Part shown: one piece after another, positions 1,881-58,216 of the stretch
Layout: each line of letters starts with the position of its first letter
How positions within the stretch are numbered: position 1 is the first letter of the stretch
Assembly: GCA_043747295.1 (NCBI GenBank)
Contig: JAYTPK010000168.1
Span: 9,121-73,120 of the forward strand
Origin: Polaromonas sp.
GTDB taxonomy: Bacteria; Pseudomonadota; Gammaproteobacteria; Burkholderiales; Burkholderiaceae_C
DNA: 64,000 bases
Direction of reading: 5' to 3'
Translations under genes and position numbers: made by a program
Notes under the pieces: generated by a model
What the model saw: the letters and a program-made list of their open reading frames with translations, nothing else
The model's database searches: none
Told to the model about the DNA's origin: nothing

Positions 1881-1948
1881 CTATCAAATTAATAGCTGTC
1901 TAAGCAATGAATACTTGGACTACAAAGCTATTTAGCACCTAAAAGCGC
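1881..1948 (-). repeat. dispersed repeat family, copy 1 (intergenic)
   Basis: CTATCAAATTAATAGCTGTCTAAGCAATGAATACTTGGACTACAAAGCTATTTAGCACCTAAAAGCGC matches the reverse complement of the family core. Confidence 0.8.
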
Positions 1949-5691: not shown

Positions 5692-7341
5692 TTACTGCAG
5701 TTTAATTTTCATGGGAATAGCGTGGCGGGTGTGACGCACTTGGTTATGGTCAAACACAGACACCCACATGTAGTTGCCCGTCGCAATAGGTTGGTCGTAT
5801 TTGGAACCCGTGTTCAACACGCGCGATGCCTCCAGGGTCCACCAGCCGTCCTTCCACTGCGCATGGGCACTCACGTCACCGCGGTCACCCATATGCGGGC
5901 CATCAATAATGGCCGATGGGATGACGGTGCCCACCGGAATAGCCGCATCTGCTTCTGCTGTAAAAGGCTGCAGGTCAGCGCGTGCCATCCAATACTTGCC
6001 ATCGTCGCTAGCGTTGGTGTCAGGGTTAAATTTACCCATCTCAGCTTGTTGAGCCGCTAGGTTTTTGGGCAGAAATTTGACCTTGACGTACGGGCTGTCT
6101 TTGATACGCTCAAAATTCTGATCGTAGCCACCACCAGTTTTCGGGTCTTGGGTATAACCGCCCGTATAGCGTCCGGGTTTTACATCCATCAGCGCGCCAA
6201 AGTAGTTGTCATCAAATTGGTTAAACGCCCCTGTGCGCACGCTCTTCCAGTGCCACACGTCGGCTAAGCTACCGTCCGTGGCAGCATGCAGACCCAAGCC
6301 GTTGGAGGGACCTGGCTTGTCCGCAAATGGCTTGGCACCCAAGCGCACGGTGTTGCCACCAGCAACGGGAGATTCGGCAATCATCACAGCAAACTTATCT
6401 TCGTAGAATTCGTTCTCGTCGTTGTTGTAGTAGTTGCTATGCAACAGCTTCCAGCCTTGGGCTGTTTTTTGCAGTGGAATATGTTTTTGGCTGCGCGTGG
6501 GGTCTTGCCACTTAAACAAGAAGTAGGCTTTGTTGCCATCGTGCAGTGCACGCACATACACAGGCACTTCGCCGCTTTTATCGGCCAGGTTAAAACCGCG
6601 CGACGTATGCACTTTGACTTCTGGTGCTTGCTGCCATATCGCGTCGTCACCTTTTCCATCGAGCACAGGCAAGGTAGTAGTTTTGATCACACTGAGTGTC
6701 ATCTGGGCAGTTTGATCCGCTACATAAGCCATAGCTGCACCGCCCAGGCCTGCAGCGGTTGCAAACACCGCACCCATGCCGTAGGCTAAGCGCGGGGTCA
6801 AAATTTTCAGCAGATGGCGAAAACCACCCAGCACCACATGGGCCACTACATGCAATCCCATGTAGACCACAAAACCCCAAGACAGCCACTGGTGCACAAG
6901 AATCAACGGGTCGGTGGGCAATAAGCCTGGAGAAAAGTACACCCAAGTACCTGTGAATGCTGCACCAGCCAGCAACACAAACGATACCCAGTAAATCAAG
7001 CGGTTAATGGCCTGCCAGCGGGTGGCGTGATCTGCACTTTTCAATGCCGACAGGCGCAGGGACAAACGCGCACCCAAACCCATGCGCCACAAAAAAACAA
7101 CATAAGCAATAACCAGTGCGGTCAGCACCGAGGCACTTACAAAGTGCCAGCGCAGCACGTTACCTTGAATCACCAGCACATCCAGCCATTTCAGCAAGCC
7201 CGTGCTGTCGGTCATGCTGGCAATGCGCCAGCCCGTGGACACGCTGGCCAGCAAGGCTATAACCAGACCCCAGTGGATTAACACGGTGGGAAGGTCAGAA
7301 GATTTTGAAGTGCGTTGTAGCAATGTTTTTGTTTGGTTCAT
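5692..7341 (-). CDS. membrane cytochrome b (b561/Ni-hydrogenase type) fused to a periplasmic EB_dh (ethylbenzene-dehydrogenase-like, DOMON-type) heme domain
   Basis: The N-terminal 210 aa carry about 5 TM helices with the HWGLV start typical of PF01292-type proteins. The C-terminal domain has LDGKGDDAIWQQAP, ALHDGNKAYFLFKWQD and DVWHWKSVRT, typical of EB_dh domains. It ends 6 nt upstream of the reductase gene. Confidence 0.75.
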   Translation of the reverse strand: MNQTKTLLQRTSKSSDLPTVLIHWGLVIALLASVSTGWRIASMTDSTGLLKWLDVLVIQGNVLRWHFVSASVLTALVIAYVVFLWRMGLGARLSLRLSALKSADHATRWQAINRLIYWVSFVLLAGAAFTGTWVYFSPGLLPTDPLILVHQWLSWGFVVYMGLHVVAHVVLGGFRHLLKILTPRLAYGMGAVFATAAGLGGAAMAYVADQTAQMTLSVIKTTTLPVLDGKGDDAIWQQAPEVKVHTSRGFNLADKSGEVPVYVRALHDGNKAYFLFKWQDPTRSQKHIPLQKTAQGWKLLHSNYYNNDENEFYEDKFAVMIAESPVAGGNTVRLGAKPFADKPGPSNGLGLHAATDGSLADVWHWKSVRTGAFNQFDDNYFGALMDVKPGRYTGGYTQDPKTGGGYDQNFERIKDSPYVKVKFLPKNLAAQQAEMGKFNPDTNASDDGKYWMARADLQPFTAEADAAIPVGTVIPSAIIDGPHMGDRGDVSAHAQWKDGWWTLEASRVLNTGSKYDQPIATGNYMWVSVFDHNQVRHTRHAIPMKIKLQ

Positions 7342-7557
7342 GGCGGTATAAATTTCTGTTTACTTACAAAAATGTTGTAGTTCGTGACCTTGAACCTCAA
7401 TAAAAACACATAAAGACACGAAATATACAACTGCAGTACTATATGCATATCATTGTCACTTCATTGTCAATACTCACCAATAACCCTGCAGAACATTAAG
7501 AATTAGAATACTTCAAGGTGTAAATGTGGTAATTTAGCGTCTAAAGAAGGAGTAAAT

Positions 7558-8703
7558 GTGAAAAATTACACAAAATTTGGGCGCTCGCTTGTCGCCTTAT
7601 TGCTTACAAGTAGTGTGCTTTGCAGCACAACAGCGCATGCCGAACCCGGCGTAGGTACGAACGAAATTGTTATCGGGCAAAGCATTGGTTTGCAAGGCGG
7701 CAAAGACGCTTTTGCTGTTGCAGTCAACCAAGGCGTTAAGCTGTACATAGACTCTGTCAATGCAGCAGGTGGTGTGTCGGGGCGCAAACTGATCATCAAA
7801 GCACTGGATGACGAAGGCAAAGGAGCCACAGCAGAGGCCAATGCCCGCAAACTGGTCGACGAAGGCGTATTTTTACTGTTTGGCTCTATTGGCGGTGGCC
7901 CAAGCACGGGGGTGATGAAGGTCGCTAACGAAAAACAAATCCCGTTCTTTGGCCCAATGGCTGGCTCGCCAGTGCTGCGCCGCCCACACCAAGCCATGGT
8001 GTTCCCGGTGCGCGCCGAGCACCGCGAGGAGTTTCGCAGCTTGTTAACTGCCGCTAAAAGCCTGGGTTTGACCAATGTGGCGTTTATGTACAGCGACTCT
8101 GAAGTTGGCAAGATGCACTTAGAAAATGTGAAGATTGCTACCAAAGATTTTGGCCAGCAGCTGGTGCTGCCTATCCCCGTAAAAGGCGACACCACCGATG
8201 CGCAGCTGGACGAGGCGGTAGCTGCCATGGAGAAAAACAAAGTCACCGTCCTGCTGCACAACGCACCTGGCAAGCTGTTTGCCAAAGTGGTGCAAAAAGC
8301 CAAAGCCAAAGGCTTGACGATTCAGTTCATGGGCGTGAATCAAGAGTCGTTTGAAATAGCCAAAATGCTTGGCAAAGATGCGGATGGCATTACGTTTGCC
8401 CAAGTGGTGCCCAGCCCATGGCAACGCAAACGCGAGCTGGCGCGTGAATACCAAGAGATGGCCAGCAAAGCAAAAATTGAGCTGAACTATGGCAGCTTGG
8501 AGGGTTTTATGACCGCCAAGGCACTGGTGATGGCGCTGCGGTCCACTGGCAAACAGCTTACCCGCACCAGCTTTGTCAAAACCGTGGAGCGCAGCGAGTT
8601 TGACCTGGGTGGGCTGATTGTTAAGTACACGCCAGGTGACCACCAGGGCTCCAAGTTTGTAGATTTATCACTGCGCTCACGTGATGGTATTTTTTTGCAT
8701 TGA
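7558..8703 (+). CDS. ABC transporter substrate-binding protein, Leu/Ile/Val-binding family, orphan
   Basis: GTG start 8 nt after AAGGAG. Signal peptide ends in AHA. EIVIGQSIGLQGG and the overall pattern fit type-I periplasmic binding proteins. No permease gene is adjacent. Confidence 0.8.
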   Translation: MKNYTKFGRSLVALLLTSSVLCSTTAHAEPGVGTNEIVIGQSIGLQGGKDAFAVAVNQGVKLYIDSVNAAGGVSGRKLIIKALDDEGKGATAEANARKLVDEGVFLLFGSIGGGPSTGVMKVANEKQIPFFGPMAGSPVLRRPHQAMVFPVRAEHREEFRSLLTAAKSLGLTNVAFMYSDSEVGKMHLENVKIATKDFGQQLVLPIPVKGDTTDAQLDEAVAAMEKNKVTVLLHNAPGKLFAKVVQKAKAKGLTIQFMGVNQESFEIAKMLGKDADGITFAQVVPSPWQRKRELAREYQEMASKAKIELNYGSLEGFMTAKALVMALRSTGKQLTRTSFVKTVERSEFDLGGLIVKYTPGDHQGSKFVDLSLRSRDGIFLH

Positions 8704-8788
8704 TAGTGTTTATAGCTATATGCTACTAATTTCATAGCTGCTTAAGTAGTAAATACTTGGACTACAGCCCATTTAGATAGGTAAAAGG
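8704..8788 (-). repeat. dispersed repeat family, copy 2 (intergenic, with internal partial duplication)
   Basis: ...TTTCATAGCTGCTTAAGTAGTAAATACTTGGACTACAGCCCATTTAGATAGGTAAAAGG. An extra ATAGCTATATGCTAC segment lies at the 5' side. Confidence 0.8.
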
Positions 8789-8815
8789 CTCCTGAACCGT
8801 AGTTCAGGAGCCTTT
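8784..8815. terminator. bidirectional hairpin terminator between convergent genes
   Basis: Perfect 14-bp stem AAAGGCTCCTGAAC / GTTCAGGAGCCTTT with loop CGTA, flanked by A and T runs. Confidence 0.6.
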
Positions 8816-18364: not shown

Positions 18365-18448
18365 CTATCGATTTCATAGCTGTCTGAGTAATGAATACTT
18401 GGACTAACAGCATATTTTGTTGGTAAAAGTGCCGTTTTAGTGCTTTTT
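18365..18448 (-). repeat. dispersed repeat family, copy 3 (intergenic)
   Basis: CTATCGATTTCATAGCTGTCTGAGTAATGAATACTTGGACTAACAGCATATTTTGTTGGTAAAAGTGCCGTTTTAGTGCTTTTT. Confidence 0.8.
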
Positions 18449-18480
18449 GTGGTTCTTTGTATTGGGACGCGATCTGCTGC

Positions 18481-19928: not shown

Positions 19929-20954
19929 TTGAGTGCCGCAGTCGAAGTGGCAAGCTTGCGAACCAGTTACGTCGGACGTTTTGCGCCCTCACCTACCGGG
20001 CCACTGCACGCAGGATCGCTGGTAGCGGCGCTGGCCAGCTGGCTTGATGCGCGTGCGCATGGCGGCCGCTGGCTAGTACGCATCGAAGACGTTGACACCC
20101 CCCGCTGCGTGCCCGGTGCTGACCACAATATGCTGCAGCAGCTAGCGCAGTGCGGTTTGGTCCCCGATGAGCCACCGGTGTACCAGTCGCAGCGCGGAGT
20201 ACATTACCAGGCCGCCCTAGACACTCTGAAACTGGCGCAATATGCCTACCCCTGCACTTGCTCGCGCAGTGATATTGAAGCCGTGTGGCAAGCCAGGGGC
20301 TTAGCCAAACCGCGCCATGGCGAGCTGATCTACCCGGGCACTTGTCGTCACAGTGCTGCGGCTGTTGATAACCTGCAACGTAGCCCTGCTTGGCGTTTTA
20401 AAACTGACTTTTCACAACAAAATCAGCCTGTAGTCCAAGTATCTGCTACTCAAGCAGCTATTAAAGATATAGCAAGCACACTTCAACCTTGCGCCGCAAT
20501 TGTAGATTGGACAGATCGCCGCTTGGGCCCGCAAACGCAATCGGTGGCCACCGCAGTGGGTGACTTTGTACTGCGCCGCGCTGACAGCCTGTGGGCGTAT
20601 CAGCTGGCTGTGGTGGTAGACGATGCGCTGCAAGGCGTTACCCACGTGGTGCGAGGTGAAGATTTAGCCGACAACACCGCACGGCAAATCTTGCTGCAGC
20701 ATGCGCTGGGCTACCCCACACCGCGGTACCTGCACACGCCACTGCAACTGGCAGCGGATGGACAAAAATTGTCTAAACAAAATGGTGCTCAGGCACTTCA
20801 ACTTGGCAGCACAGAGGCAGCGTCCAGCGCTTTAATACAGGCTGCAAAAGCACTAAAACTTAATCCAAATGGATACAGTTATGCCAATAAATCAAACTAT
20901 CTGGGACAATTGTTGCCTAATTTGTTGACACAATGGAAAACCATCTACTACTAA
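19929..20954 (+). CDS. gluQ: tRNA glutamyl-Q(34) synthetase
   Basis: [51 protein letters not shown] and KLSKQN match GluQRS. TTG start is uncertain. It carries an in-frame repeat-derived insert. Confidence 0.9.
20398..20477 (+). repeat. dispersed repeat family, copy 4, translated in frame inside gluQ
   Basis: AAAACTGACTTTTCACAACAAAATCAGCCTGTAGTCCAAGTATCTGCTACTCAAGCAGCTATTAAAGATATAGCAAGC encodes [26 protein letters not shown]. Confidence 0.75.
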
Positions 20955-23497: not shown

Positions 23498-23577
23498 AAC
23501 ACGCCTCTGCAACACGATAGCGCTTGGCTAACCAAGCCAGCCAGCGCGTGCTCTGTGCCCTCTACAATCGAGGGCGT

Positions 23578-24399
23578 ATGAGCGATATTTCTCCCCTTCC
23601 CCCAGCCACTGTACCTGCAGCAGCAGACACCGCAGTACCCACCACCCCGCATCCCAAAGCCCGCCCCATTCGCAGCTTTGTGCTGCGCACCGGCCGCACC
23701 ACCGTAGGCCAAGCCAAAGCACTGGAGGATTTGGGCCCTCAATATTTGCTGCCGTATCAATCAAACGCTATAGATTTAATAGCTGTACAAGCAGTAAATA
23801 CTTGGACTACTGGCCAAAATGCTACTCAAACCATCCTAGAAATCGGTTTTGGCATGGGCGAAGCCACAGCACACATTGCCAAGCTGCTGCCGCAAGCTTT
23901 GTACTTGGCCTGTGAGGTGCATCCACCCGGTGTGGGCGCGTTGCTCAAGCGTATTGGTGATGAAGGCATTGGCAATATTCGCATCATTCAGCACGATGCC
24001 GTGCAAGTGCTAGAGCACATGCTGGCGCCAGACAGCCTAGACGCAGTGCACATTTTCTTCCCCGACCCTTGGCATAAAAAACGCCACAATAAACGCCGCT
24101 TGATCCAAGCGCCCTTGGTCAAATTGCTAGCCTCACGCATTAAGCCTGGCGGCTATATCCACTGCGCTACCGACTGGGAAAACTACGCCGAGCAAATCTT
24201 GCAAGTGCTGACCGATGAGCCGCTGCTCTCCAACACGGTGCCCGGCACACCAGCCACTGGCACCGCACCTGCTACTGGCTATGCACCCAAGCCGGATTAC
24301 CGACCGCTGACGAAATTTGAAAACAGGGGTATTAAGCTAGGCCACGGAGTATGGGATCTGGTGTTTAGACGCAACATGGCGCACAGTTCAGGTGCATAG
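23578..24399 (+). CDS. trmB: tRNA (guanine-N7)-methyltransferase
   Basis: ILEIGFGMGEATAHIA, FFPDPWHKKRHNKRRL and ATDWENYAE are TrmB motifs. ATG at 23578 within ORF 23524..24399. Confidence 0.9.
   Translation: MSDISPLPPATVPAAADTAVPTTPHPKARPIRSFVLRTGRTTVGQAKALEDLGPQYLLPYQSNAIDLIAVQAVNTWTTGQNATQTILEIGFGMGEATAHIAKLLPQALYLACEVHPPGVGALLKRIGDEGIGNIRIIQHDAVQVLEHMLAPDSLDAVHIFFPDPWHKKRHNKRRLIQAPLVKLLASRIKPGGYIHCATDWENYAEQILQVLTDEPLLSNTVPGTPATGTAPATGYAPKPDYRPLTKFENRGIKLGHGVWDLVFRRNMAHSSGA
23768..23827 (-). repeat. dispersed repeat family, copy 5, translated in frame inside trmB
   Basis: CTATAGATTTAATAGCTGTACAAGCAGTAAATACTTGGACTACTGGCCAAAATGCTACTC encodes AIDLIAVQAVNTWTTGQNAT. Confidence 0.75.
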
Positions 24400-25773: not shown

Positions 25774-25851
25774 AAAAAGTAGCACTTTTACCCATCATAT
25801 TGGCCTATAGTCCAAGTATTTATTGCTTATATAGCTATGCAATTAATAGCG
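25774..25851 (+). repeat. dispersed repeat family, copy 6 (abuts the alaS stop)
   Basis: AAAAAGTAGCACTTTTACCCATCATATTGGCCTATAGTCCAAGTATTTATTGCTTATATAGCTATGCAATTAATAGC. Confidence 0.85.
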
Positions 25852-35346: not shown

Positions 35347-36360
35347 TTATTGCGCGGTGATGCCTGCCGTTTTGATCACGCGGGTCCAGCGATCTTTTTC
35401 AGATTTGACAAACGCGCTGTAAGCCGCAGCACCCAAAGTGGGCACCACAAAACCTGTGGACTCTAGGCGCTGCTTGAGTTCAGCACTTTGAATGGCTTTG
35501 ACCATTTCAGCCTCCAGCTTGTCAACAATCGCTTTAGGGGTACCTTTGGGCAGCGACATGCCTGACCACGACAGCGCAGAAAAACCGGGGTAGCCAGACT
35601 CACTGACGGTGGGTACATCAGGGTACAGCGGGTTGCGCTGCGCGCTAGATACCGCCAGCGCGCGCAGTTTGCCCGCTTTAACGTGCTGCAAAGCGACGTC
35701 TTGGTTGATGAACATCATGGGGATTTGGCCGCCCAGCAGGTCGGTCATCATCGGGCCGCCGCCACGGTACGGTATGCCCACCATGAACAGACCTTTGCAA
35801 TCGGTTTTACCAGCTGGGCAGGCTGACACGGTTTGCTTGAGTAACTCCATCGCCATGTGGCCAGACGCTGCATGGGTGTAGCCGTAATTGAGCTTGCCTG
35901 GGTTGGCCTTGCCGTAGTCCACCAGTTCTTGCAGTGTTTTAAACGGCTGGCTGGGGTGCACCACCAGCACGTTAGGCCCTGAGTTAACTTGCGTGAGGTG
36001 GATAAAGTCGTTGTTAGAGTCGTACTTTAAATTGGCATCCAGCCCATGGGCTACGGCGTTTTGCCCTACCCCAGTTTGCACGATGGTGTAACCATCAGCG
36101 TTGGCCTTGGAGCCGCGCTCTGTGCCAATCACGCCACCTGCACCGCCCACGTTTTCAACCACAAAGGGCTGCTTCATCGACTTGGTCAACGCGTCGGCCA
36201 TCATGCGGGCCATCACATCGCTGGTGCCACCTGGCGGAAAAGGTACGATCACTTTAACGGCTTTAGTGGGGTAGTCAGCCTGCGCCAGTGCCACGCCAGA
36301 CACTATAAAAAGCATAGCTGCTTGAGCAATAAATACTTGGACTACACGGTTATTTAGCAT
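35347..36360 (-). CDS. Bug/TctC family tripartite tricarboxylate transporter substrate-binding protein
   Basis: Mature start DYPTKAVKVIVPFPPGGTSDV is the Bug-family hallmark. The N-terminal 16-20 codons lie inside a repeat copy. Confidence 0.88.
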   Translation of the reverse strand: MLNNRVVQVFIAQAAMLFIVSGVALAQADYPTKAVKVIVPFPPGGTSDVMARMMADALTKSMKQPFVVENVGGAGGVIGTERGSKANADGYTIVQTGVGQNAVAHGLDANLKYDSNNDFIHLTQVNSGPNVLVVHPSQPFKTLQELVDYGKANPGKLNYGYTHAASGHMAMELLKQTVSACPAGKTDCKGLFMVGIPYRGGGPMMTDLLGGQIPMMFINQDVALQHVKAGKLRALAVSSAQRNPLYPDVPTVSESGYPGFSALSWSGMSLPKGTPKAIVDKLEAEMVKAIQSAELKQRLESTGFVVPTLGAAAYSAFVKSEKDRWTRVIKTAGITAQ

Positions 36361-36372
36361 ATAAAGCCTTCA
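36303..36372 (-). repeat. dispersed repeat family, copy 7, supplies the start codon and signal-peptide N-region of tctC
   Basis: CTATAAAAAGCATAGCTGCTTGAGCAATAAATACTTGGACTACACGGTTATTTAGCATATAAAGCC. On the minus strand it reads MLNNRVVQVFIAQAAMLFIV. Confidence 0.8.
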
Positions 36373-41540: not shown

Positions 41541-41611
41541 ATTTTACTACCGGGAGGGAGCTTGTCTAGTCATTGATTACCCTTGTTTGGCAATCGTCAC
41601 ACTACAAAGAA

Positions 41612-41700
41612 CCAGTAAAAGCACTAAAACATCACTTTTATCAATGAAATATGCTTGTAGTCCAAGCATTTACTACTTAGACAGCTATGAAATTAATAGC
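41612..41700 (+). repeat. dispersed repeat family, copy 8, supplies the last codons and stop of ispF
   Basis: CAGTAAAAGCACTAAAACATCACTTTTATCAATGAAATATGCTTGTAGTCCAAGCATTTACTACTTAGACAGCTATGAAATTAATAGCAC. The ispF stop (CTA at 41685-87) lies in the CAGCTATGAAATT core. Confidence 0.8.
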
Positions 41701-47198: not shown

Positions 47199-47263
47199 CA
47201 TTTAGGTGCCAAATATGCCCGTAGTCCATGTATTCATTGCTCGAACAGCTATTAAATTGATAG
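47199..47263 (+). repeat. dispersed repeat family, copy 9 (intergenic)
   Basis: CATTTAGGTGCCAAATATGCCCGTAGTCCATGTATTCATTGCTCGAACAGCTATTAAATTGATAG. Confidence 0.75.
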
Positions 47264-49435: not shown

Positions 49436-50149
49436 ATGTCTGCACACGAATACTCTCCCGGATTAGTTATTCAAAACTTTACTGCGCCATTGCAGTTAGC
49501 CCACTTTAAGTTGGCAGCATTTGATATGGACTCCACGCTGATTAACATCGAGTGCGTTGACGAGATAGCCGATGCAGCGGGTCGTAAAGCAGAAGTTGCG
49601 GCCATCACCGAGGCGGCCATGCGCGGCGAGATTACCGACTACAAAGACAGCCTGCGCCGCCGTGTAGCGCTGCTTAAAGGCGTTCCTGTTAGTGCGATGG
49701 AGCAGGTATACACGCAGCGCTTGCAGCTTAACCCTGGCGCACAGGTGTTGACGCAAGCTTTTAAAGCTGCGGGCATGAAGCTGCTTTTAGTGTCGGGTGG
49801 TTTCACGTTTTTTACGGATCGTATTCGTGATCGATTGCAGATCGACTGGGCGCGCTCTAACGTGCTGGAGATAGCCGATGGCCTACTGACAGGCCGCATG
49901 GTAGACCAGCCTTGGGGTGATATTTGTGACGGCGAACAAAAGCGCCTGACGCTGCTTCAGACATGCGCTGCCATGGGCATTGATGCATCGCAAACCATCG
50001 CAGTGGGTGATGGCGCAAACGATTTGCCCATGATGGGTGCGGCAGGTTTGTCAGTAGCCTTTCACGCTAAACCTGCAGTGCGTGCCAAAGCGATGGTGTC
50101 TATCAACACGGGTGGTTTAGACCGTGTTTTAGGGCTATTTACCAGCTAA
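49436..50149 (+). CDS. serB: phosphoserine phosphatase
   Basis: HAD motifs FDMDSTLI, LVSGGF and GDGANDLPM. ATG at 49436 within ORF 49367..50149. Confidence 0.88.
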   Translation: MSAHEYSPGLVIQNFTAPLQLAHFKLAAFDMDSTLINIECVDEIADAAGRKAEVAAITEAAMRGEITDYKDSLRRRVALLKGVPVSAMEQVYTQRLQLNPGAQVLTQAFKAAGMKLLLVSGGFTFFTDRIRDRLQIDWARSNVLEIADGLLTGRMVDQPWGDICDGEQKRLTLLQTCAAMGIDASQTIAVGDGANDLPMMGAAGLSVAFHAKPAVRAKAMVSINTGGLDRVLGLFTS

Positions 50150-50200
50150 ATCAGCCTGTAGTCCAAGTATTTATTACTTATATAGCTATTAAATTGATAG
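50140..50200 (+). repeat. dispersed repeat family, copy 10 (overlaps the serB stop)
   Basis: CCAGCTAAATCAGCCTGTAGTCCAAGTATTTATTACTTATATAGCTATTAAATTGATAG. Confidence 0.85.
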
Positions 50201-52107: not shown

Positions 52108-53964
52108 ATGAGTGACATACCTGTTTATCGCGACTTTACTTTTGGCGTGACTCGCGCAGTGAAAACTGAGCGCGGAGGAAACACTTATTTGTCAGCCGAG
52201 CAGGCTTTGCAGGCTTATCCAGAACGCCTCACTGATCGCCTGCAGCACTGGGCGCACACCGCGCCTGAGCGCACTTGGATGGCGCGGCGCGATAGCACGG
52301 GCGTTTGGGTAAAAATCAGTTATGCCCAAGCTTGGGACAAAGCGCAGCGCATAGGCCAAGCCCTGCTTAATCGCGGGTTGGGCGTCGATAAACCCGTGGC
52401 CATCTTGAGCGAAAACAGCCTAGAACATGCCCTGTTGGCCATTGGCTGCATGACCGTGGGCGTGCCGTATTGCAGCGTATCCACTGCCTACAGCTTAATG
52501 AGCCAAGACTATGAAAAGCTGCGCCATGTACTGAGCACCATCACCCCGGGTTTGGTGTACGCCAGCGATTGGGCGCGCTACGGCAAAGCTATTGACGCTG
52601 TGCTGGGTGCTGACGTGGAAGTTGCTACAAATACCATAGCTACCCGAGCAATAAATACGTGGACTACCACCCTATTTGATGCACTTTTAAGCACAAATAC
52701 CACGCCCGCAGTCGCAGAGGCCATGCAGGCCACTGGCGGCGACACGATAGTGAAGTTTTTGTTCACCAGCGGCTCTACCAAGCTGCCCAAAGGCGTGGTC
52801 AACACCCAGCGCATGATTTGCGCTAACCAGCAGCAGATGGCGCAGTCCAAACCCAGCGTGTTTGACATTCCGCCCGTGCTGGTGGACTGGCCGCCCTGGA
52901 ACCACACCTTCGGCGGCAACCATGATTTCAACCTCGTGCTGTTCCATGGCGGCACGCTGTACATCAACGACGGCAAGCCCACGCCAGCTTTGATTGGCGA
53001 GACCATTCGCAACCTCACCGAGATTGCGCCCACGGTGTATTACGACGTACCGATTGGCTTTGAATATCTCGCCAACGCGATGAAGACTAACGCCGCGCTA
53101 CGTAAAAATTTACTCTCCAACCTGCGCATGTTTTTCTACGCGGGCGCAGCGCTGGCGCAGCCTATTTGGGACTCGCTGTATGAAACCCAAGAAAAAGAGC
53201 TGGGCTACCGCATTCCCATGACCACTGGCCTGGGCATGACCGAGAGCGCGCCGTTTGGCTTGTTTGTTACCAACACGCAAGTCAAGGCGGGCGACCTGGG
53301 CCTGCCCACGCCGGGCCTGGAGCTCAAGCTAGTGCCCAGTGGCGACAAATTGGAGGTGCGCTACCGTGGCCCTAACGTCACGCCCGGCTACTGGAAAAAC
53401 GAAGCCGCAACCCAAGAAAGTTTTGACGAAGAAGGCTTTTTTTGCACTGGCGATGCGGTCAAATGGATTGACGAGGCGGACATTCACCAAGGCCTGAAAT
53501 TTGATGGCCGCATAGCTGAAGACTTTAAGCTGTCCACCGGCACCTTCGTCAGCGTAGGGCCGCTGCGCGCCAAGGTCATTGCCGCTGGTGCGCCGCTGAT
53601 TCAAGATGTGGTGATTACTGGGCTGAATGAAAAAGAAGTCGGCGCGCTGATTATCTTAGCGCTAGGCCCCGCTAAAAAGTTTGCTGGCTTACCTGACAGC
53701 GCCACGATGAAACAAGTGGCTGAGCACGCCTGTATCCAACAAGCCATGGCAAACATGCTGACCACATTAGCCACTACTGCCACAGGTTCATCCAGCCGCA
53801 TTGCCCGCGCGGTGGTACTGACCGAGCCACCCCAGATCGACAAAGGTGAGATCACCGACAAAGGCAGCATCAACCAGCGCGCTGTGCTGACTGCTCGCGC
53901 TGCCTTGGTGCAAGCGCTGTATGCGGATACTGCGCCTCATTTGATCAAGCCTTCCCATGCTTGA
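52108..53964 (+). CDS. AMP-dependent acyl-CoA synthetase (feruloyl-CoA synthase-like)
   Basis: AMP-binding motif FLFTSGSTKLPKGV, plus GLGMTE and GDAVKWID. The overall layout resembles proteins annotated as feruloyl-CoA synthase. Confidence 0.8.
   Translation: MSDIPVYRDFTFGVTRAVKTERGGNTYLSAEQALQAYPERLTDRLQHWAHTAPERTWMARRDSTGVWVKISYAQAWDKAQRIGQALLNRGLGVDKPVAILSENSLEHALLAIGCMTVGVPYCSVSTAYSLMSQDYEKLRHVLSTITPGLVYASDWARYGKAIDAVLGADVEVATNTIATRAINTWTTTLFDALLSTNTTPAVAEAMQATGGDTIVKFLFTSGSTKLPKGVVNTQRMICANQQQMAQSKPSVFDIPPVLVDWPPWNHTFGGNHDFNLVLFHGGTLYINDGKPTPALIGETIRNLTEIAPTVYYDVPIGFEYLANAMKTNAALRKNLLSNLRMFFYAGAALAQPIWDSLYETQEKELGYRIPMTTGLGMTESAPFGLFVTNTQVKAGDLGLPTPGLELKLVPSGDKLEVRYRGPNVTPGYWKNEAATQESFDEEGFFCTGDAVKWIDEADIHQGLKFDGRIAEDFKLSTGTFVSVGPLRAKVIAAGAPLIQDVVITGLNEKEVGALIILALGPAKKFAGLPDSATMKQVAEHACIQQAMANMLTTLATTATGSSSRIARAVVLTEPPQIDKGEITDKGSINQRAVLTARAALVQALYADTAPHLIKPSHA
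52625..52692 (-). repeat. dispersed repeat family, copy 11, translated in frame inside the acyl-CoA synthetase gene
   Basis: CTACAAATACCATAGCTACCCGAGCAATAAATACGTGGACTACCACCCTATTTGATGCACTTTTAAGC encodes ATNTIATRAINTWTTTLFDALLS. Confidence 0.65.
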
Positions 53965-58149: not shown

Positions 58150-58216
58150 TGCTTTTTCCAATCGAATAGCCTTGCAGTCCAAGTATTCATTACTTAAGCA
58201 GCTATCAAATTTATAG
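58150..58216 (+). repeat. dispersed repeat family, copy 12 (intergenic)
   Basis: ...GAATAGCCTTGCAGTCCAAGTATTCATTACTTAAGCAGCTATCAAATTTATAG. Confidence 0.8.

Follow-up and report, generated by a model that had tools for sequence, protein, structure and literature searches.

An old, in-frame repeat copy in trmB of a Polaromonas-like bacterium, probably rewritten to each species' repeat variant

The trmB gene in the 64,000-nucleotide stretch of DNA analyzed here (the window) contains a copy of an AT-rich repeat, in frame and directly upstream of the SAM-binding motif. Comparisons across relatives make it probable that this copy is an old, tolerated replacement within TrmB which has been rewritten to the repeat variant of each species. 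It is one of at least 147 in-frame copies in the genome, and among these it is unremarkable; what is unusual is the phenomenon across the genome as a whole.

The repeat copy in trmB

Coordinates below are positions in the window.
23578..24399, + strand: trmB (tRNA m7G46 methyltransferase), 273 aa, with ATG at 23578 and stop at 24397-24399, from the ORF list
23767..23832, + strand: in-frame repeat copy of 22 codons, A64-T85 = AIDLIAVQAVNTWTTGQNATQT, from nhmmer
23767..23783, + strand: head hairpin GCTAT-AGATTTA-ATAGC, encoding AIDLIA, which is the repeat's genus-wide conserved part
23788..23790, + strand: CAA (Gln71) at repeat columns 22-24, a stop codon (TGA, TAA, or TAG) in 71% of intergenic copies
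23797..23810, + strand: species-specific core AATACTTGGACTAC (N-T-W-T-T), 14 nt
23827..23829, + strand: CAA (Gln84) at repeat columns 61-63, TAA in the family consensus
23833..23859, + strand: SAM-binding motif I, ILEIGFGMG, β-strand 1 of the Rossmann fold (predicted strand 84-89)

The gene product matched the Pfam family Methyltransf_4 (1.4e-50, residues 84-261) and the structure of E. coli TrmB, 3dxx (1.4e-54), and combines this domain with the SAM and FPDPW motifs that define membership of TrmB. Its catalytic motifs, including EIGFGMG and FFPDPWHK, are all intact and are invariant across 50 aligned sequences. There is an alternative start, an in-frame TTG at 23524, upstream of the ATG at 23578. 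The conserved N-terminal region (RSFVLRTGRTTVGQAKA...) lies upstream of the insert in the same frame in all orthologs compared, and from the reading frame the segment is predicted to be a translated part of TrmB. In an AlphaFold2 model of the protein (mean pLDDT, 81.5), insert residues 67-78 were predicted as a confident helix leading into β-strand 1, with a pLDDT of 89-96 for the block.

A profile was built from 10 window copies of the repeat other than the one in trmB, and run with nhmmer over the 3.8-Mb, 349-contig assembly. Positions 23767-23817 matched profile columns 1-51 with a score of 47.1 bits and a whole-genome E value of 6.4e-12. A preliminary description of this DNA had placed a repeat copy in frame within trmB, just upstream of the SAM motif ILEIGFGMGE, and the nhmmer match, the ORF list, and the position of the motif (23833-23859) bear this out. 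The copy is real, but the coordinates given for it, 23768-23827, were one base off: the peptide AIDLIAVQAVNTWTTGQNAT is encoded by 23767-23826 and is followed by QT and then ILEIGFGMG. The "minus orientation" assigned to it reflects a naming convention, in which minus is the forward strand here. The last 15 nt of the copy form a decayed tail, outside the nhmmer-supported part (23767-23817); in a direct comparison the tail was identical to the repeat consensus at 11 of 21 positions, and a full-length tail is kept in the trmB ortholog of genome G011. The codon for Asp66 is GAT where the family usually has AAT; it occupies the same place as the Asp of the canonical TrmB LD, and D66 is nearly invariant in TrmB alignment A1.

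A second gene in the window carries a copy in the same frame.
52108..53964, + strand: acyl-CoA synthetase (ACS)-like gene (AMP-binding), 618 aa, from Pfam
52624..52681, + strand: in-frame ACS copy, same frame as in trmB, ATNTIATRAINTWTTTLFDA, with CGA at the first stop position

This copy matched profile columns 1-58 (39.7 bits, E value of 1.3e-9). The codons of both copies begin at profile column 1, in agreement with the shared frame (A-[IV]-NTWTT) noted earlier for the two genes, with the ACS copy now starting at 52624 and not at 52625. Both trmB and the ACS gene have C-for-T changes at stop positions.

A coincidence, in which a fast-evolving linker happened to resemble the repeat, is scarcely credible. 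The linker does vary in length and sequence between species, and the first four codons correspond to the ancestral A-L-D-L, as a chance likeness would allow; the profile statistics (E value of 6.4e-12 over 51 nt) nevertheless refute it, and it is also contradicted by the exact 14-nt species-specific core, by the same pattern in the ACS gene and in ∼145 other genes, and by the way in which copies track the variant of their species.

TrmB was searched for in 40 relatives, one of which, an incomplete genome, was without a match. The canonical PYxxxPLDxxxxFGRxAPxxLEIGFG was present in every searched genome without the repeat head motif CTATNNATTTNATAGCT (other families, and genera g2, g4, and g5). 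The linker of about 17 residues that the preliminary description gave for Burkholderia, against 25 here, was confirmed, with 17 residues from PY to [IV]LEIGFG in 16 of 16 relatives lacking the head motif. These repeat-free orthologs have the canonical short linker and were not seen to share the inserted peptide; a shared peptide had been named in advance as the finding that would speak against a repeat origin.

The preliminary description took the site to be a variable linker, and in this it was mistaken, since a conserved segment has been displaced. TrmB here lacks the proteobacterial LD....FGRxAP segment before β-strand 1 and has AIDLIAVQAVNTWTTGQNATQT in its place; an Asp and possibly a Gly are the sole remnants. 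In the alignment with E. coli TrmB, GREAPVTLEIGFG stands opposite GQNATQTILEIGFG. A simple "+22 residue insertion" was rejected, because the protein gains only 8 residues on balance and FGRxAP has disappeared. By comparison with the orthologs, then, the copy is read as a replacement of a conserved motif, with a net gain of 8 residues, and not as an entry into a free linker.

The repeat-derived segment was found in 18 of 18 same-genus genomes and in G023, from a neighboring genus, with the same start codon and without FGRxAP; its length ranges from 26 to 43 residues between species. No genome with an empty canonical trmB site was encountered among the 18 searched in the genus. In the repeat-poor genomes G001 and G016, the insert has decayed past recognition and is not the canonical linker. 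Related long linkers occur in records from Rhodoferax, Ca. Aalborgicola, and Hylemonella, and the canonical form in many named Polaromonas (P. aquatica, CG9_12, A23). The canonical form in repeat-free genomes, together with the repeat-derived segment across the genus, argues for an old event in which a conserved motif was replaced; on these comparisons the trmB copy is old and goes back to an event common to the 18 same-genus genomes and several related genera. In the trmB frame the repeat head reads A-I-N/D-L-I-A, which resembles the ancestral A/P-L-D-L-x-A found at precisely this place, so the head match may in part reflect ancestral codons that were kept and not DNA that was inserted. This likeness and the E. 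coli alignment make the exact boundaries of the original event uncertain.

Long insert-like TrmB linkers were also observed in three records with 9-17 head motifs per genome: L182 (Ottowia massiliensis), L189 (a Hylemonella MAG), and L141 (a Rhodoferax ferrireducens MAG). Despite the long TrmB linker, head motifs number only 9 in Ottowia and 15 in Hylemonella, where the segment outlasts an abundant family; the linkers of all three look like fossil inserts that have outlived the repeat.

The repeat family and known repeat systems

The repeat consensus, GCTATAAATTTAATAGCTGCTTGAGCAATAAATACTTGGACTACAGGCCTATTTGATTGGTAAAAG, is 66 nt long with 33% GC, in a genome of 54% GC. With nhmmer, 785 copies were identified across the genome, 12 of them in the window; a few may come from a co-binned relative, which leaves the window unaffected. 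For the 14-nt core AATACTTGGACTAC, 12 occurrences were counted in the window where 0.18 would be expected. Contamination of the assembly, a MAG, is estimated at 8.4%, and two Polaromonas-like populations are probably mixed in it. Outside the window, contig C82 carries at 1180-1983 a second trmB, with 81% identity to the one in the window and a G002-like repeat variant. The copies found by nhmmer in the window, apart from those in trmB and the ACS gene, are as follows.
1881..1945, 8722-8787, 18365-18429, and 36303-36365, + strand: repeat copies
25785-25850, 41635-41700, 47199-47263, 50138-50200, and 58152-58216, - strand: repeat copies
20408..20473, - strand: repeat copy inside an ORF, read in an opposite-strand frame

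Some intergenic copies run past their TAAAAG end into an AAAAG...CTTTT-type or terminator-like hairpin (window 18394-18460, 41600-41657, and 8766-8810; for example, GGCTCCTGAACCGTAGTTCAGGAGCC after the copy at 8722-8787). These may represent a longer variant of the repeat, or a tendency to sit beside terminators.

The head of the repeat forms a hairpin with a 5-bp stem, GCTAT-N7-ATAGC. Beyond this stem the repeat folded no better than shuffled sequences (DNA fold z score of -0.8), the 781 aligned copies contained no covarying distant columns, only correlations between neighboring ones, and an Rfam scan of the window returned no family. A palindromic element of the type found in Rickettsia (RPE) was rejected on the short stem, the z score, and the lack of covariation; the other mark of RPEs, in-frame presence in numerous unrelated ORFs together with a conserved encoded peptide, was found (147 copies). 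A MITE was rejected because the repeat has neither terminal inverted repeats (its ends agree at 8 of 20 positions) nor target-site duplications (among 150 full-length copies, flank k-mer matches were not enriched at any offset). Copies are singletons, with gaps of <300 bp between neighbors in 9 of 559 cases, only 2 of the 9 being inverted. REP/REPIN was likewise rejected, the repeat being 66 nt with a weak hairpin, and not a 20-40-nt tagged palindrome, and forming no close inverted pairs. GTAG is present on the reverse strand of the core in the genome studied here (G000) and absent from the G009 and G007 consensus. Having failed these defining tests, the repeat falls outside REP/REPIN, MITE, and palindromic RPE, and resembles them in sitting inside genes.

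Two PF01797 (Y1 transposase) genes are present in G000, neither convincingly flanked by the repeat. The RAYT-like gene at C100:7085-7798 has one degenerate copy 7 nt downstream (7805-7856, inverted) and nothing clear upstream; it adjoins rarA, which itself has a degenerate in-frame copy at 6436-6492 (region 5703-7856). At C331:1328-2212, a Y1-transposase-like gene has its own ∼28-nt inverted repeats (GGGTCAGGTCTCCCATTTCCCAAAAT..., region 1230-2330), unrelated to the 66-nt repeat. Replication-strand bias of the copies in G000, assessed by local GC skew, is weak (odds ratio, 1.5; p = 0.009), and neighboring copies have the same orientation 58% of the time. On the complete chromosome of Polaromonas aquatica (G046, L202), CTATNNATTTNATAGCT was counted ∼67 times forward and 3 times reverse in the first 1.8 Mb, with whole-genome totals of 142 and 139; this bias suggests an orientation tied to replication direction, as in single-strand (HUH/Y1) transposition.

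In-frame repeats are of a known kind, represented by the Rickettsia RPEs and by intragenic REPs. The present family, its scale, and its rewriting within genes appear to be new, although the family may have been mentioned before. According to the MITE review PMC10969869, the first report counted 44 RPE copies, roughly half lying in ORFs (Ogata et al. 2000, 2002). Like the RPEs summarized there, the repeat here is dispersed in frame through many unrelated housekeeping genes, with a recognizable, tolerated peptide and preferred frames. Unlike them, it resides in free-living Comamonadaceae, is 66 nt long as opposed to ∼100-150 nt, is not palindromic beyond its 5-bp stem, has at least 147 in-frame copies in one genome using six frames, and is rewritten to the species variant at orthologous sites. 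Sequence homology to the Rickettsia families is unlikely, given the different phylum-level lineage.

The intragenic GTAG/CGTC-tagged REPs, argued to be neutral passengers (Di Nocera et al. 2013, PMC3733652), are comparable in lying inside known genes, including tRNA-related and DNA repair genes, and in encoding 20-30 residues. Those elements are palindromes of 20-40 nt, rich in GC and tagged by a conserved tetranucleotide, and often come in dimers, whereas the repeat here is AT-rich (33% GC) and occurs singly. The only comparable overwriting described so far concerns extragenic REPINs (REPORTH preprint, 10.1101/2024.10.14.618302), where, as here, a position is kept across strains while its sequence shifts to the predominant type of the genome. 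That case concerns extragenic REPIN doublets in Pseudomonas chlororaphis with known RAYT genes (10.1101/2024.10.14.618302); here the copies lie in open reading frames, the comparison spans species and genera, and no transposase is tied to the repeat. The BRE element (Hot et al. 2011, PMC3110155) has been reported in Polaromonas (JS666) and other Comamonadaceae, again with some copies wholly in coding sequence. It is ∼90 nt long with 69% GC, is often in tandem, and has at most 29 copies (PMC3110155), and it was rejected as the same element on GC content and length.

Reading frames of copies within genes

A copy was classed as genic when one frame was open through it, with at least 60 codons to either side, and codon usage scored positive on each flank. 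As a control, random 60-bp windows passed in one frame in 46.4% of cases and in two frames in 0.05%, so the test is specific and roughly half-sensitive. The 147 genic copies among 785 (18.7%) are a lower bound, and are depleted 2.5-fold relative to random positions. The fraction of copies open in each frame was taken from 373 full-length intergenic copies.

Opposite/1: 68 genic; open in 0.38 of intergenic copies; PVVQV(S/F)TAQAAIKNIA
Same/0 (the trmB frame): 36 genic; open in 0.056 of intergenic copies; A(I/T)xxIAx(Q/K/R)A(V/I)NTWTTG
Same/1: 15 genic; open in 0 of intergenic copies; LSKxELLEQQILGLQxDL
Opposite/0: 8 genic; open in 0 of intergenic copies
Same/2: 7 genic; open in 0.34 of intergenic copies
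Opposite/2: 6 genic; open in 0.35 of intergenic copies

All six frames occur, and their use is far from uniform (chi-square, 130; p = 3e-26); the frame preference first suspected from trmB and the ACS gene therefore persists genome-wide. At columns 22-24 a stop is present in 71% of intergenic copies and in none of the 36 genic same/0 copies, which have AAA (8), CGA (8), CAA (7), and other codons. Columns 61-63 read TAA in 308 of 588 intergenic copies, compared with 0 of 22 genic same/0 copies, and a TAA variant that stops opposite/1 occurs in 23% of intergenic copies and in none of the 68 genic copies in that frame.

The suggestion that only stop-free frames survive selection was correct in part: stops have been purged from genic copies and frame use is skewed, but the trmB frame itself is open in just 5.6% of intergenic copies. 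Nor is freedom from stops sufficient: of the 147 genic copies, no more than 6 and 7 use the two frames that are ∼35% open, and none of the six frames is unused. The absence of stops is therefore necessary, yet does not explain the frame preference. The two disfavored open frames give Cys-, Tyr-, and Pro-rich peptides, and the two favored frames Ala/Ile/Val/Thr/Gln-rich ones; we infer that the compatibility of the peptide decides which genic copies survive.

Species variants and proposed history

The core AATACTTGGACTAC is abundant only in G000 (554 copies) and its closest relative, G008 (576 copies); the head motif CTATNNATTTNATAGCT is common in all genomes of the genus, at 42-474 copies each, and is abundant in three related genera as well. 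Consensus sequences of different species, drawn from 330-400 kb of each of four other species, differ in the 30-nt core. Each trmB copy scored best with the model of its own species and lower with the others (49.6, 50.2, 21.5, 23.6, and 18.4 bits on the diagonal), and the ACS copy likewise scored best with its own. With the tested copies left out of the models, the own-species signal in trmB was still clear for the G000, G007, and G009 clades, and was ambiguous for G011 (19.7 versus 21.2 bits) and G023 (18.4 versus 18.0 bits).

For the 147 genic sites of G000, partial genomes gave 61 ortholog alignments spanning the site. The insert was present in 54 of the 61, including 39 of 42 at ≥55% identity. 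Recognizable orthologous copies scored best with their own species' model in 29 of 30 cases, or 27 of 30 after leave-out. Across conserved columns, agreement with the consensus at third codon positions was as good in genic copies as in intergenic ones (0.944 and 0.984); at first and second codon positions it was poorer. From the codon comparison, this pattern is the opposite of protein-level conservation. Own-species matching, third-position conservation, and the decay of the insert in the repeat-poor G001 and G016 together indicate old sites at which the DNA appears to be homogenized with the genomic repeat population. The preliminary description foresaw neither the antiquity of the copy nor its lineage-wise rewriting.

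Independent recent insertions, each of the resident species' own variant, at the same hot spot in trmB, the ACS gene, and other genes would also place each species' variant in its trmB, and would be compatible with site-specific targeting by a mobilizing enzyme. We consider this unlikely. It would require the same LD....FGRxAP codons to have been deleted, with the same left junction, in every lineage; moreover, other species have an insert at 39 of 42 orthologous gene sites, no empty canonical site appeared in the 18 same-genus genomes searched, and the repeat-poor G001 and G016 keep a decayed insert in place of the canonical linker.

Similarly improbable is that the repeat acts as DNA or RNA, perhaps as a binding site for a species-specific chromosome-organizing or RNA-processing protein, in which case selection, and not conversion, would make all copies, including those in genes, co-evolve with that protein. 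Such a function could account for the synonymous positions of genic copies, which show the same degree of conservation as intergenic copies, for the tracking of each species' variant, and for a head hairpin that is conserved across genera. Against it, there is no significant folding beyond the 5-bp stem (z score of -0.8), no covariation, and no Rfam match; copies are depleted 2.5-fold in genes (18.7% versus 46.4% of random windows), the trmB insert decays in low-copy lineages, and no candidate factor was identified.

The reading we favor, an old replacement that has since been rewritten, would have the following course. In an ancestor of the Polaromonas-like genus and some Rhodoferax-group lineages, the AT-rich repeat displaced LD....FGRxAP before the SAM-binding strand. 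The copy would have been translated ever since, here as 22 codons with a net gain of 8 residues and a predicted α-helix (67-78) running into β-strand 1. Having varied in sequence and length while the rest of TrmB was conserved, it would be a tolerated passenger and no new functional module. Selection on the protein would remove stops and unsuitable residues, in keeping with CAA at both family stop positions and the retained Asp66, and the DNA would be rewritten to the current variant of the species, most likely by short-tract gene conversion or else by overwriting by a repeat-spreading enzyme. The same would apply to at least 147 other in-frame copies, the frame skew reflecting peptides that proteins can carry over the long term and not only frames that are free of stops.

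A broader proposal, for which we would put the chances at about even, is that ∼150 or more proteins carry a peptide module homogenized by conversion or by a repeat-spreading enzyme, with selection vetoing only stops and harmful residues. If this is true, peptide segments of unrelated enzymes would co-evolve within a species and diverge together between species, a concerted evolution of short dispersed repeats inside coding sequence. Active overwriting or conversion would, if it occurs, provide a natural system for studying the limits of DNA-level homogenization inside working genes, and which peptides proteins can absorb. For annotation and phylogenetics, such segments lie at orthologous sites, yet their residues are not orthologous one by one.

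In-frame "selfish" repeats have so far been regarded mostly as something peculiar to Rickettsia and to a small number of REP families. The count in this free-living betaproteobacterial lineage from cold environments is at least threefold higher, with copies in core enzymes such as TrmB, RecG, DapF, ArgJ, and FolP, and the copies are old yet carry the current variant of the species, even at synonymous sites. In a sample of genic copies, Pfam confirmed RecG, DapF, ArgJ, FolP, enoyl-CoA hydratase, and Ada/AlkA as hosts. Two in-frame copies, in different frames, were seen within one protein in RecG (C114) and in enoyl-CoA hydratase (C175); those of RecG read ...AFTNKNPSQSKYLLHSALLF... and ...EEKQPVVQVSINQTAINNIANA....
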